From contig CAVXWZ010000011.1 in the NCBI GenBank assembly GCA_963765575.1, forward strand, positions 608,001 to 672,000: a stretch of 64,000 nt of DNA, in the 5' to 3' direction. The stretch is from an uncultured cyanobacterium (GTDB lineage Bacteria; Cyanobacteriota; Cyanobacteriia; PCC-6307; Cyanobiaceae). Position 1 is the first letter of the stretch, and each line of letters opens with the position of its first letter. The notes under the pieces were generated by a model. That model had not been told where the DNA came from, ran no database searches, and saw nothing but the letters and a program-made list of their open reading frames with translations. Shown piece after piece: positions 53,955 through 58,958 of the stretch. The translations under genes and the position numbers were made by a program.

Positions 53955-54993
53955 GCCCCCACTGGTGCTCTACAGCTTCCGCCGTTGCCCCTATGCGATC
54001 CGGGCACGGCTGGCCCTGGCGGCCGCCGGTCTGGCGCCTGGCCCGGGGCTGGAGCTGCGGGAGGTGAGCCTGCAGGCCAAGCCGCCGGAACTGCTGGAGG
54101 CGTCGGCCAAGGCCACCGTGCCGGTGCTGGTGGGCCCCGGAGTGATCGAGGAAAGCCTGGCGATCATCCACTGGGCGCTGGATCAGGCCGACCCCCACGG
54201 CTGGCGGGCCGGCTGGTCGCCCGCCGATCGGATTGCAGCCGATGCCCTGATCGCCGAGAACGACGGTGTGTTCAAGCAGCACCTGGATCGCTTCAAGTAC
54301 GCCGCCCGCCACGGCCCCGAGGGCGAGGCGGAGCGCGAGCAGCACCGCCAGGCGGCCCTGGCGATCCTGGAGGTCTGGAGCGGGCGGCTGCAGGAGGGCG
54401 GCTGGTTGCTGGGATCCCGGCCGTCGCTGGCGGACTGGGCCCTGCTGCCCTTCGTGCGCCAGTTTCGTCTCGCCGACCCCGAGGGTTTTGACAGCCTCAG
54501 GGGCCTGGAACCCCTGCAGGCGTGGCTGGGCCGCTTCCTGGTGAGCGACGCGCTGGCGGCGGTGATGGCACCCCCCTGGGCCAGCCGCCAGCCCTGGCGC
54601 TCTCTCCGCTGGCTGTATCACCTGGCTCTGCAGCCGGAGTGGCAGGCGGCTCAGGGGTCCGGGAGCTACCGGCGCTCCACCCGCGGCCGCAGCCTCGAGC
54701 AGGAGGGCTTCATCCACGCCAGCTACGCCCACCAGGTGGACGCCACGGCCCAGCGCTTCTACGCCGATGCAGGCCCGGTGGTGCTGCTCAGCCTCGATCC
54801 CGCTGCCCTGGAGCAGGCCGGGGTGGCCGTGCGCGCCGAACCGGCCCCGGGCAATGGCGAGCTCTTCCCCCATCTGTATGGGCCGCTGCCGCTGGCGGCG
54901 GTGCTGCGGGCTGAGCCCTGGCGGCCCCCCCCTGAGCCCGCCGTGCCCGAGGGGCGCCCTGAGGTGAGCCTTGGGGGAGCAATGCCAAAGTGA
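53947..54993 (+). CDS. Glutathione S-transferase fused to a C-terminal DUF952 domain
   Basis: LYSFRRCPYAIRAR, TVPVL, FKQHLDRFKY, PFVRQF, then LYHL, STRG.SL..EGFIH, FPHLYGPL, all in one frame. Confidence 0.85.
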   Translation: MTEPPLVLYSFRRCPYAIRARLALAAAGLAPGPGLELREVSLQAKPPELLEASAKATVPVLVGPGVIEESLAIIHWALDQADPHGWRAGWSPADRIAADALIAENDGVFKQHLDRFKYAARHGPEGEAEREQHRQAALAILEVWSGRLQEGGWLLGSRPSLADWALLPFVRQFRLADPEGFDSLRGLEPLQAWLGRFLVSDALAAVMAPPWASRQPWRSLRWLYHLALQPEWQAAQGSGSYRRSTRGRSLEQEGFIHASYAHQVDATAQRFYADAGPVVLLSLDPAALEQAGVAVRAEPAPGNGELFPHLYGPLPLAAVLRAEPWRPPPEPAVPEGRPEVSLGGAMPK

Positions 54994-55256: not shown

Positions 55257-55862
55257 ATGGATGTGATCGACGCCATCTACGCCCGGCGCTCGGTGAAGCA
55301 GTTCGATCCCTCCCACCGGCTCACGGCTGAGGAGGAGCGGCAGCTGCTGGAGGCGACGATCCAGGCGCCCTCCAGCTTCAATATTCAGCACTGGCGCTTT
55401 GTGATCCTGCGGGATCCGGCCCTGCGGGCCACGCTGCGCCAGGAGTACGGCAACGACCAGGCCCAGATCACGGATGCCTCGCTGCTGGTGCTGTTCACGG
55501 CTGATCTGAAGGCCTGGGCGAAACAGCCGGAGCGCTACTGGGTGAACGCCCCCAAGGAGGTGGCTGATCTGCTGGTGGGCTGGATGGGCCCCTTCCACGA
55601 GGGCCGCGAATGGCTCCAACGCGATGAGGCCCAGCGCTCGATCGGCCTGGCGATGCAGACCCTGATGCTCGCCGCCACCGGCATGGGCTATCAGAGCTGC
55701 CCGATGATCGGCTTTGAGATTGAAAAGGTGGCTGAGCTGATTCACCTGCCGGCCGACCATGTAATGGGTCCGATGCTGGCCATCGGCAAGGGCACGAAGG
55801 AACCCTGGCCCAAGCCGGGCCAGCTGCCGCTGGAGCAGCTGGTGGTGGAGAACGGGTTCTGA
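55257..55862 (+). CDS. Nitroreductase family protein
   Basis: RRSVKQFD, APSSFNIQHWRF, SCPMIGF; GGAG RBS. Confidence 0.92.
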   Translation: MDVIDAIYARRSVKQFDPSHRLTAEEERQLLEATIQAPSSFNIQHWRFVILRDPALRATLRQEYGNDQAQITDASLLVLFTADLKAWAKQPERYWVNAPKEVADLLVGWMGPFHEGREWLQRDEAQRSIGLAMQTLMLAATGMGYQSCPMIGFEIEKVAELIHLPADHVMGPMLAIGKGTKEPWPKPGQLPLEQLVVENGF

Positions 55863-55928
55863 TCGCCCCAGCTCGCTCATCACGCTGGGCCTGCGGCTGA
55901 AGCCTGTCCGCTTGGACGCATGCCGCGC

Positions 55929-56061
55929 AGATCCCCCCGCCGGTCGCAGACGGATACGCCGAGACTGGTGGCAGGCGATCGAAGTGGTGCGGGCAACTGG
56001 GCGATGTTCCCTGGAGGTGGGCCCGGGGGGCTTCTGTATTCGTTTACGCAGGGTGTTATCG
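55929..56061 (+). mobile_element. Degenerate attC-like site (candidate)
   Basis: Arm CGCAGACGGATAC (55945-55957) is complementary at 10/13 positions to GTATTCGTTTACG (56036-56048); GTTATCG at 56055 as R'; R'' eroded. Confidence 0.3.
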
Positions 56062-56091
56062 GGTCCGCATAACATGTTTGGCGAGAGGACG

Positions 56092-56221
56092 GCAGCTCAA
56101 CAATCGCTTGCACTCACAGGCTTTTCCTCGTTGCTGTTCCTACCTTCGATGCTTATGCTTATGCTGCCAGTGAATGCCTTGATCGGGTGGTTCGCGGATC
56201 CGCCTAAGCATTGTTAGCTGC
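56092..56221 (+). mobile_element. Degenerate attC-like site preceding the TA cassette
   Basis: GCAGCTCAACAATCGCTT at left pairs with AAGCATTGTTAGCTGC at right; core GTTAGCT at 56213-56219; central stem poor. Confidence 0.55.
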
Positions 56222-56269
56222 ACAGGAAGGCCATGCTCGGTATCATCGGAGTGATGGCTGTGATCACGG

Positions 56270-56503
56270 ATGCCGACAGTCCTCAGAAGCGGCCCGTACA
56301 GGTTCTACTTCTACAGTCACGAACCCAACGAGCCTCCTCATGTCCATGTTGACAGAGATCAGGCGTCATGCAAAGCCTGGCTCGCACCGGTCGCACTTTC
56401 CTCAAGCCTTGGTTTTAAGGCCAAAGAGCTGCGTGAGATTGAACGGCTAGTCAGCATGAACCGAGCTATCCTGCTGAAAGCATGGGAGGAGTTTCATGGC
56501 TGA
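56270..56503 (+). CDS. DUF4160 domain protein (putative toxin)
   Basis: MPTVLR.GPYRFYFYSHEPNEPPHVHV...WEEFHG pattern; overlaps downstream gene by 8 bp. Confidence 0.85.
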   Translation: MPTVLRSGPYRFYFYSHEPNEPPHVHVDRDQASCKAWLAPVALSSSLGFKAKELREIERLVSMNRAILLKAWEEFHG

Positions 56504-56756
56504 CCCAGGCCAGCGTGTCACAGACGTTGCCTCGACAGAGGACAGGCTCACTGTCGACCTAGCTGATGGACGATCCATCTCGGTGCCTTTGGCTTGGTAT
56601 CCGCGGCTTCTGCATGCCACCTCTCAGGAGCGTGAGAATTGGGAGATTGCTGGGGCTGGCTATGGAATCCACTGGCCAGATATTGATGAGGATTTAAGTG
56701 TGGAAGGCCTACTTCGCGGAGCGCCAGCGTCCCAGGTCAAGACACTGGTCAGCTAA
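56496..56756 (+). CDS. DUF2442 domain protein (putative antitoxin)
   Basis: LADGRSISVPLAWYPRL..AT..ER.NW..G.G.GIHWPDIDEDLSVEGLLRG; GGAGG RBS. Confidence 0.88.
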   Translation: MADPGQRVTDVASTEDRLTVDLADGRSISVPLAWYPRLLHATSQERENWEIAGAGYGIHWPDIDEDLSVEGLLRGAPASQVKTLVS

Positions 56757-56840
56757 CACCGCCATGCACCAGAGCCGCCACCTAGAGGATTGCATCTGCA
56801 TTCCCAACTCTGTGCGGCCAGGTGATGGCGAGTGTTAGCT
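56751..56840 (+). mobile_element. attC: Integron attC recombination site (90 bp)
   Basis: R'' AGCTAAC (contains the stop codon), 5-nt spacer, L'' CCATGCACC pairing with L' GGTGATGG leaving one unpaired base, inner GCCGC/GCGGC stem, spacer, R' GTTAGCT. Confidence 0.85.
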
Positions 56841-56879
56841 GGGCGGGAATCTCTTCGAATCAACCAACCGGAAGATCAG

Positions 56880-57517
56880 ATGACCAGCTATGTGCAAATT
56901 TTGACCGCACTGAGTATTGGCCTATTTGGAGTTTTCGGAACTCCGAAGCTATTGAGCGCTGCTGAGCAGATCCCAGTCACGGCCATTGACATCTTGCTGG
57001 ACCCGGACGCCACGATGCTTGACCGGGCCCGAGATAACAACGCCCGATTGCTCAAGGTCTTCCCAAAAGGATTTGCCTTGGATGCAGCGTACCACCTTCA
57101 TATCACACTAGTGTAGCGTTTCGTGAATACGACAGATCTTGTTAAACTTATACCGCCACCGGTAAGGTCTTTGCCCGTGCCAACATCTAGGGCATGAAGC
57201 TGGAGGCGTTCAAGTACTACTACGCCACGGGCGGGGAAATGGGTGTTGCCCGGATTGTTGCCAGGTCAACGCCTGAGTTGCTCAAGCTGCAGCAGGAATT
57301 GATCGCCGCCGTGGCCCCGTTCACGGTGGTAACCGGACCGATTGGCGCGTTCAGCGCATCCCACGGCGATCCTGCCACCGATGCAATTCTCATCAACTAT
57401 GTGTCCACCTTCGTTCGGAAACAATCCGGCGAGAACTTCAGTCCGCACGTCAGCACCGGCGTCGCTCCCAAGAACTACCTTGACAATATGCTCGCCGAGC
57501 CGCTACAAAAAAGCTAA
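56880..57517 (+). pseudogene. Disrupted exported 2H-phosphoesterase-like protein
   Basis: Signal peptide, HLHITL and PHVST motifs; TAG at 57114, 1-nt frameshift near 57150, TAG at 57188; two ORF pieces join into one reading. Confidence 0.7.
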
Positions 57518-57552
57518 AGGGATGGAACTTAAAATCCTGTGACGCTTGTCAC

Positions 57553-57753
57553 GACGGCAATCAAGCCGATGCACAGAAGTGAAGACTTCCGGGTGAACCG
57601 TTGATTACCGCGTCCAGTAGCGATGAGCGCAACGCCTCATCCTTTGCTTCAGCCGACCTGCTACAGCTGGCTTCATAACCCTGCGCAGGGGGCAGAGCTC
57701 AAATGCTGGGGCAGTTTTCAAAACTTCCAGCGATCTTGATCGGCTCGTTCCGC
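57553..57753 (+). mobile_element. Degenerate attC-like arms at the right edge of the low-GC island (candidate)
   Basis: GCCGATGCA (57565-57573) pairs with TGATCGGC (57737-57744) leaving one unpaired base, followed by GTTCCGC; spacing longer than a typical attC. Confidence 0.3.
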
Positions 57754-57899
57754 TTCCCGAGGGCAGCCTCGGCCATGGCGACGCCCACCGCCTCAAGACC
57801 ATGGTGCGTTCCCCCCTGGCGGTGACCCAGATCGTTGGCGGCGGTGCTGGCGGCCAAAAGGTGCTGGCGGCCCGAGCATGGGGAGCAGCGCAGAACACG

Positions 57900-58958
57900 A
57901 TGGTGAATCCTTCCCGTGGCCCGGAACGGCTGGTGCGCAGCGGCCAGTGGCTGATCGCCCTGCTCTTCGCCTATTTCCTCATCCAGGTGGGCGGGGCCCT
58001 GATCGCCGACCTGCCGCTGCTCTCCAGTCCGCCCCAGCTGGAGCAGTTTCTTGACCAGCCGCGCCTTGCCGAGCTGGAGGCCGAGTTGCAACCCCTGCAG
58101 GCGCGGCGGCAGGGGCTGCAGGAGGAGGCCGATCGTCTGCGCGAGCGACAGCAGCAGGCGCAGGAGGCCTACGGGCGGGAGCAGGCCAGCTTCGAGACCT
58201 GGCGTTCCACCCGCTCCGCCACGGCCCAGTCCGACCAGAACCCGGAGGTGATCGCCCGGGCCCGCCAGCTCGATGGGCTGTTGCGGCAACAGCAGCAACG
58301 CAGCACTGAGCAGGCGGAGATCAGGGCCCAGCTGCGGGTCGTGCAGGCCTCGATCGCGCCGCCCCAGGAGCAGCTTCAGCAGCTTCGGGCCGAGGCCCGT
58401 GAGCGCTGGCAGCGGGCCCGACAGGAGGCGGAGCTGCGCTCCTTCGGCATCCGTCTGTTGTTTGTGGGGCCGCTGCTGGCCCTGGCGCTGTGGCAGTTCC
58501 GCCGCTTCCGCCGCAGCGACCAGTGGCCCTTCGTGTGGGGCTTTCTGCTGTTTGGCCTGTACGCCTTCTTTGTGGAGCTGGTGCCCTACCTGCCCAGCTT
58601 CGGGGCCTACATCCGCTACGGCGTTGGGGCGCTACTCACATTCCTGGTGGGCCGGGCCCTGATCCGCTGGCTCAACGCCTACCTGGCGCGCAAGCAGCGG
58701 GAGCAGGCGGCGCCCCAGCAGCAGCGCCAGCACGCCATACGCTACGAGAAGGCCCTGCAGGCCCTGGGGCGCAGCCAGTGTCCGAGCTGCGAGCGCAACC
58801 TGCCGCGCCGCGAGGGGGGGCTGCCCAACTACTGCATGCATTGCGGCCTGCAGCTGCAGCACGACTGCCGCCAATGCGGCTTCCACCATTACGCCTGCTT
58901 TCCCTACTGCCCCAGCTGCGGCCATCCCGCAGAGGTGGCCCCGGAGCGGCCGGCATGA
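57900..58958 (+). CDS. Membrane protein with coiled coil and C-terminal double zinc ribbon
   Basis: TM, long Q/E-rich coiled coil, three TMs, CPSC, CMHCG, CRQCG, CPSCG. Confidence 0.8.
   Translation: MVNPSRGPERLVRSGQWLIALLFAYFLIQVGGALIADLPLLSSPPQLEQFLDQPRLAELEAELQPLQARRQGLQEEADRLRERQQQAQEAYGREQASFETWRSTRSATAQSDQNPEVIARARQLDGLLRQQQQRSTEQAEIRAQLRVVQASIAPPQEQLQQLRAEARERWQRARQEAELRSFGIRLLFVGPLLALALWQFRRFRRSDQWPFVWGFLLFGLYAFFVELVPYLPSFGAYIRYGVGALLTFLVGRALIRWLNAYLARKQREQAAPQQQRQHAIRYEKALQALGRSQCPSCERNLPRREGGLPNYCMHCGLQLQHDCRQCGFHHYACFPYCPSCGHPAEVAPERPA

Follow-up and report, generated by a model that had tools for sequence, protein, structure and literature searches.

A likely attI site without an adjacent integrase gene heads a predicted DhiTA-type cassette in a picocyanobacterial genome

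The window analyzed here is a stretch of 64,000 nucleotides from a genome of 2.71 Mb in 11 contigs (G000). Near its right end lies an island (56049-57730) with 54.9% GC, compared with 70.1% for the whole window, and the list of open reading frames shows short genes in one orientation across it, as an earlier note made from the letters of the window had described. The island carries an attI homologue, an intact cassette with a DUF4160/DUF2442 gene pair, an attC site and a broken gene (Table 1). With an attC site, an attI homologue and a mobile cassette all present, its integron origin, also proposed in that note, is borne out. An Rfam scan of the window gave nothing but one tRNA, outside the island.

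The island is strain specific. When 14 relative loci were compared, 55863-57730 was found in none of them, and it is thus not core DNA conserved in synteny; the flanks at 54927 and 57833 were directly joined in 8 of these loci and were separated by other short inserts in 2. Some portion of the island was matched in 16 of the 31 other genomes of the genus. At both sides of the strain-variable segment, 30 to 40 nt from the end of a DUF952 gene are present (repeat D6); apart from this short repeat, a generic repeat search returned nothing informative. In the relative G012, a Coq4-family gene directly follows the nitroreductase gene. Given this adjacency and the Coq4 remnant at the right end of the segment, the array headed by the attI occupies a place between the nitroreductase and Coq4 genes. 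At 57801-58958, the window encodes a 385-aa membrane/coiled-coil protein with a cysteine-rich C-terminal part, which had no Pfam match and is patchy in the genus (20 of 31 genomes).

Table 1. Positions of the features discussed (window coordinates unless a genome or locus is named)
Feature	Position	Strand	Remarks
Strain-variable segment	54927..57833		Small ORF, nitroreductase, attI array, Coq4-like remnant
Nitroreductase	55257-55862		PF00881
TGTA motif	56035..56038	+	In register with motif overlapping or following intI stop at integrase-linked sites
attI homologue (docking site), ~170 bp	56049..56219	+	Model R1 match; three repeated boxes and crossover
Distal palindromic box of attI	56055..56073	+	Probable accessory IntI binding site
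Middle half-box of attI	56158..56168	+	
Proximal palindromic box of attI	56190..56208	+	Common to hoxH-linked orphan site
G/TT crossover point of attI	56213..56215	+	GTT invariant in alignment A3; cassette homology to other copies starts here
Intact gene cassette, 621 bp	56214..56834	+	Core GTTAGCT and inverse core AGCTAAC, exact complements
DUF4160 protein, 77 aa, predicted DhiT-type toxin	56270..56503	+	PF13711, E 1.4e-19
DUF2442 protein, 86 aa, predicted DhiA-type antitoxin	56496..56756	+	PF10387, E 2e-25
attC, 90 bp, member of genus-wide attC family	56751..56840	+	Fold and L-box pairing
Broken 2'-5' RNA ligase/2H-superfamily pseudogene	56835..57505	+	Two in-frame stops, frameshift, 3' end missing
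Coq4-family gene remnant	57732..57833	+	blastn 77-87% to L086 (G012); PF05019 on intact gene
Orphan attI array (L005)	G000:C11:393641-395700		Just after hydrogenase gene hoxH (PF00374); HicA/HicB-type cassettes, at least 2 attC
Orphan attI array (L124)	G000:C2:555695-557900		After NYN/OST-HTH gene; DUF4357 gene, at least 2 attC
Gene-less ~138-bp cassette	L042/L243, L111, L223 (G008); L244, L161, L163, L086 (G012); L047 (G019)		

The stop codon of the DUF2442 gene lies inside the inverse core of the attC site. Full-length copies of the cassette, with both ends at G/TT, were found at 6 loci in 5 of 31 relatives, with 76 to 87% identity; three of them stand behind an attI and three behind an attC. 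In the genome G007, the cassette of the window is carried by an attI at the end of hoxH that has no integrase gene nearby. With its exact G/TT ends in varied contexts, the unit behaves as an integron cassette, and sequence comparison shows it to be mobile with exact ends.

DUF4160 and DUF2442 are the domain pair of DhiTA, a toxin-antitoxin system functional in Dickeya and Escherichia coli according to two papers (PMC8198452; also PMC12065111). The gene order of DhiTA in Dickeya dadantii (PMC8198452) is also that of the window: DUF4160, the toxin, comes first and is followed by DUF2442 in an overlapping reading frame. The two differ in that the pair lies here in a cyanobacterial integron cassette, with an overlap of 8 nt instead of 3, and they are likened by their domains alone. 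We predict the pair to be a DhiTA toxin-antitoxin system, in which the DUF4160 protein would be toxic. NCBIfam has no family for this pair or for the 2H homologue described below, and the PDB holds one uncharacterised DUF2442 relative, 3K8R. In the metagenomic runs X2 and X3, loose ends in the DUF4160 gene (56264; 56357-56360) look like insertion-sequence ends, and a similar end follows an intI fragment on contig C1 of this genome; in other strains, the cassette may have been hit by an insertion sequence.

An attC site consists of R'', L'', L' and R' boxes between AAC and GTT, with spacers of 5 and 5-6 nt and an extra base in L'', and its bottom strand forms a stable hairpin. Four such sites had been read into the island by the earlier note, and only the one called well formed, at 56751-56840, held up. 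The fold of its bottom strand has -28.9 kcal/mol and a z of -6.37, which 0 of 200 shuffles equalled, its outer core is paired at 4 of 4 positions, and among 64 AAC/GTT pairs in 55860-57900, compared under canonical spacing, it alone has 7/7 L-box pairing, the next best having 5/7. The extra base is a C on the bottom strand, where attC sites usually have a G. This site shares 76% identity with two other attC of the genome, at C2:326671 and C11:395071; in an alignment of the family, the stem was conserved and double compensatory changes were found in 0 of 22 pairs. The other three candidates neither fold nor pair like attC. The supposed degenerate site at 56092-56221 (z -1.45; 16 of 200 shuffles equal or better) falls within the attI, the left-edge candidate at 55929-56061 (z +1.55) overlaps the distal part of the attI, and at the right edge z was -1.78 for 57553-57700 (10 of 200 shuffles as good) and -0.55 for 57610-57753. 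An attC cluster without an integrase (CALIN) requires two or more attC sites by definition; therefore, the island, although it has no intI nearby, is not a CALIN.

The second gene is 58 to 64% identical to an intact 211-aa ORF in the locus L141, and the homologue matches PF13563 (E 3.9e-8). No attC was found 3' of the pseudogene by the scan for AAC/GTT pairing in 55860-57900. Its position suggests that it was once a cassette. The word "decaying", used in the earlier note for the whole array, is apt for this gene, which has two stops, a frameshift and a lost 3' end, but not for the first cassette and the attI boxes, which are intact.

The attI homologue was recognized by comparing the DNA 3' of the intI stop codon in 30 integrase loci. 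Members of the genus share there a conserved element of about 170 bp, composed of two palindromes, one distal and one proximal, with a half-box between them, and of an invariant GTT, beyond which the sequences diverge (alignment A3). A sequence-only profile, R1, was made from 15 intI-adjacent sites of relatives, with this genome and the two closest intI orthologues excluded. It matched the window at 56049-56217 with 39 bits and an E value of 3.8e-11, the next independent match having an E value of 0.36. In the whole genome only three places were matched, the window site with an E value of 1.6e-9, and the best E value in a shuffled-genome control was 2. R1 recovered the attI at 11 of 16 full-length intI loci outside the training set; the five misses were three copies of a divergent type, including that of this genome, and two sites at contig ends. 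Judged by homology and position, 56049-56219 is likely an attI without an adjacent integrase gene. Its three boxes, to which IntI would bind, and its crossover are intact, and its spacers have diverged. The GTT motifs at 56055 and 56213 that the earlier note assigned to attC sites are real, but they belong to the distal box and the crossover of the attI. No orthologue of this attI was found in the 31 genomes of the genus, and an exact 23-nt pattern from it had 0 matches in metagenome contigs. A sigma-70 scan for a promoter of the Pc type gave one site, at 56219-56246 inside the cassette, with 0.6 expected by chance.

The attI match bears directly on the interpretation first given to the island, namely a decaying attC cluster, or cassettes that a distant IntI had placed at an ordinary secondary site (attG). 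It would suit the low GC, the single true attC and the presence of an IntI elsewhere but not locally, and isolated cassettes are known to arise by insertion at attG (bioRxiv 10.1101/2022.09.11.507474). However, three of its four attC candidates are unlike attC in fold and pairing, and the left junction, which should be a chance site, is homologous to a full attI: the match to integrase-linked attI sites extends over 165 bp to the left of the crossover (E 3.8e-11), which is unexpected for a random attG. This interpretation is thus largely refuted by the R1 match at 56049-56217, and we regard it as very improbable.

Upstream of the distal box, at 56035-56050, a TGTA-N8-AACA motif is found. It overlaps the intI stop codon at linked sites and is in register in many sites lacking intI. 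We take it to resemble CRP/NtcA-type sites; as a CRP/NtcA- or LexA-type site, it was set aside for its unconvincing spacing and conservation.

As the earlier note had stated, there is no tyrosine recombinase in the window: all matches to PF00589 and TIGR02249 are on other contigs. One intact IntI is encoded in the genome, on contig C2 (326 aa; 464 bits against TIGR02249, with a cut-off of 265; no internal stops). The window therefore has no intI adjoining its attI, as a complete integron has, and the nearest IntI is on contig C2. The cassettes of the C2 integron, on the same strand as intI, comprise a MazE/PemK pair, a second PemK cassette and a DUF1349 gene. PF00589 had only three matches in the genome (the IntI, the decayed fragment on C1 and a weak one); with this query, there was thus no clear XerC or XerD. 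The genome has three attI without a linked integrase (orphan attI), in the window, at C11:393641 and at C2:555695, and each heads a low-GC run with attC. The integrase-linked attI of this genome is divergent. Its score was 9.4 bits, that of the window site 33.5, and the genome-wide R1 search missed it; compared by a crude box score, it is the 4th most similar to the window site among 30. In a midpoint-rooted tree, the resident IntI forms a separate branch with the IntIs of G008 and G011 and is about 70% identical to most others. Cyanobacteria of other families (L036-L040, L051, L053, L054, L061, L063) have a separate IntI clade, and the attI profile did not match them.

Taken together, we consider it probable that the island is an attI without a local integrase, followed by an intact predicted DhiTA cassette and a broken gene, and that it serves as a satellite platform loaded in trans. 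The enzyme would be the intact C2 IntI or a resident that preceded it. Bound to the repeated boxes of the attI as double-stranded DNA, it would join an incoming cassette at G/TT 56213, with the folded bottom strand of the cassette's attC as the recombination partner. The DhiTA cassette, in first place, would then be the newest arrival, and the decayed gene behind it an older 2H-family cassette that it displaced to second place. This IntI could also excise the DhiTA cassette by attI x attC recombination, and the toxin-antitoxin pair would penalize its loss. A local intI would formerly have existed and been lost. No intI relic was found 5' of 56049 by tblastn, profile or blastn, and a comparison of the upstream stretches of 67 orphans with the upstream neighbourhood of intI genes gave no match beyond a 60-nt repeat; the loss is therefore deduced only from other loci, where 16 attI lie beside intI fragments.

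Loading in trans has evidence against it in the divergent linked attI of the resident enzyme and in the strict specificity of IntIs for their own attI, as reported in PMC2095811. Both would fit an inert relic, in which a complete integron lost its intI, the divergent resident IntI cannot insert cassettes, and the array, no longer exchanging cassettes, decays behind a toxin-antitoxin pair that protects against deletion; excision or copying by way of attC might at most be left. The broken second gene with its last attC gone, the decayed intI fragment on C1, which is 50% identical to the resident gene, and the frequency of attI beside intI fragments (16 among 150 matches listed) agree with such a relic. 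On the other hand, the three boxes and the crossover have stayed intact despite spacer divergence, and the comparisons across genomes described below speak for continued exchange. We consider an inert relic unlikely.

R1 had matches in 28 of the 31 other genomes of the genus, with 1 to 18 sites each, and one weak match in 29 genomes outside the genus. In a sample of the family, 38 of 121 genomes were matched, with up to 22 sites; by gene content and GC, these are probably picocyanobacterial. Among the 150 attI matches listed (13 more were obtained), 26 follow a full-length intI and 16 an intI fragment, and 108 have neither within 1.5 kb upstream; the pairing was made among the intI matches listed (55 weak ones lie beyond), and some attI are near contig ends. 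The full-length intI matches number 31, of which 4 have an internal stop and 15 belong to the training sites of R1. Orphan attI also occur in closed or two-contig genomes (4 in G002, 5 in G012, 3 in G013 and 7 in G019). From 67 orphan sites selected, 60 had enough DNA downstream to be analyzed. An attC on the same strand was present within 2.4 kb downstream in 42 of the 60 and within 1.5 kb upstream in none; in the remaining 18, no attC was detected within 2.4 kb downstream. GC falls across 58 of the 60 orphan attI, from 0.66 to 0.51.

By their upstream neighbour, the orphans form 38 groups, 13 of them with more than one member, and within none of these 13 does any pair have its first cassette in common. 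The end of hoxH is one such address: among 23 genomes with DNA downstream of it, an attI was found in 17 at E <= 0.01 and in 20 at E <= 0.5, 3 had none, and only one pair of these orphans has a common first cassette. From these comparisons, orphan attI are seen to occupy conserved loci with variable first cassettes, and such differences between orthologous orphans argue against an inert relic.

The hoxH orphans begin 9 to 241 nt past the end of the gene, and intI was found at the hoxH end in 0 of the 23 genomes. Such sites, and the lack of an intI relic at the window and at most orphans, could also be explained if the attI head had arrived alone, never with a local intI, through an attI-bounded circle or island recombination, and had then gathered cassettes; IntI1 is capable of attI-bounded excision (PMC12901181). 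At other loci, however, full intI genes, fragments and short relics form a graded series, and since conservation reaches leftward as far as the TGTA motif, the distal GTT is no clean insertion border. An arrival of the attI alone is, in our view, somewhat less probable than the inert relic, and it would alter only the step of origin and not the model of loading in trans.

A gene-less cassette of about 138 bp with its own short attC stands first at many attI, linked or orphan (Table 1). In G008, the copy at the intI-linked attI and that at one orphan have 100% identity, and the part seen at a second orphan (74 nt) is identical as well. G012, a closed genome, has identical copies at two orphans and a copy with two base differences at its intI-linked attI. 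Recent loading in trans is best indicated by this occurrence of identical cassettes at several attI within a genome, which also speaks against an inert relic. G008 has a second IntI, of the main clade, and its identical copies thus need not come from an enzyme of the G000 type. An element resembling an insertion sequence splits the integrase-linked attI in L244 (G012:C1:990500-997000) and L242 (G008:C12), and in G012 cassettes follow the proximal half of the split site. By eye, the 138-bp cassette has promoter-like hexamers, and in this it is like the promoter cassettes that a study of Vibrio reported (bioRxiv 10.1101/2023.11.21.568050).

Four DNA runs from three studies contain parts of the window stretch, all as assembled contigs. 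Contigs matching the window attI stop at 56215-56216 in two runs, loose contig ends follow 56836-56839 in three, and in the run X4 the identical toxin-antitoxin cassette has a different upstream neighbour of 332 nt. These contig ends fit branching at both att sites, to which other strains or species may contribute; with that reservation, the stops at the attI and the other neighbour in X4 also weigh against an inert relic. No joints at the cassette ends showing excision were found in the four DNA runs, and no RNA run containing the window stretch was among the matches listed.

CALINs and single attC sites lacking an integrase (SALINs) are already known. A CALIN (PMC4889954) resembles the island in having cassette DNA with attC, no intI nearby and an IntI elsewhere, and loss of intI is among the origins given; the island differs in having one attC and in retaining a full attI. 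That paper treats attI as unknown for most integrons and searched it for classes 1 to 3 only, so that retained attI sites such as these were not covered by the survey. A tool that looks for attC alone would likely call the island a SALIN, which is a single attC with one or more genes and no integrase nearby. By their description (bioRxiv 10.1101/2022.09.11.507474), SALINs lack any further att site in the vicinity, and attG sites unlike attI are proposed as their place of origin; the left junction of the island is an attI homologue, and the island is thus not a SALIN of the attG type. In integrons of the Treponema denticola type, intI is transcribed toward attI and the cassettes, and Synechococcus IntI is reported to cluster there (PMC3607928, PMC4889954). 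The C2 integron and the loci of the genus likewise carry intI on the same strand as attI and the cassettes; however, these papers treat one attI per integron, whereas here attI outnumber intI several-fold. An integrase acting from a distance, as it would in our reading of the island, is mentioned for attC-based mobilization (PMC4889954; bioRxiv 10.1101/2022.09.11.507474; among others). We found no report of dispersed orphan attI or of picocyanobacterial attI in the literature searched, outside of which lay most subscription journals and supplements, and within this scope the retained, dispersed attI sites have not been found described.

By itself, the locus in the window is ordinary, with one toxin-antitoxin cassette of a known type and a pseudogene; the wider pattern is moderately surprising. 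We lean slightly toward a distributed integron in picocyanobacteria of this family, in which attI specificity would be relaxed and one or two integrases would serve up to about twenty attI at conserved chromosomal addresses (the end of hoxH, for example). Integrase-less arrays outnumber complete integrons. Debris, rearrangements and off-target insertions are the usual explanations for them, partly because in most bacteria there is no way to search for attI. If the distributed integron is real, many CALINs and SALINs would be live satellite integrons instead. With the attI profile, integrase-less arrays in a widespread picocyanobacterial group appear to start at retained docking sites where cassettes are still exchanged. 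This would give a further origin for CALINs and SALINs that is directly testable, would question a strict pairing of one integrase with one attI, and maps natural hotspots of gene capture, rich in toxin-antitoxin cassettes, in aquatic primary producers.

Away from the attI matches, an identical attC-like stretch of 94 nt is found twice in this genome, at G000:C10:21117-21210 and C11:443565-443658, and may be part of a repeated element.
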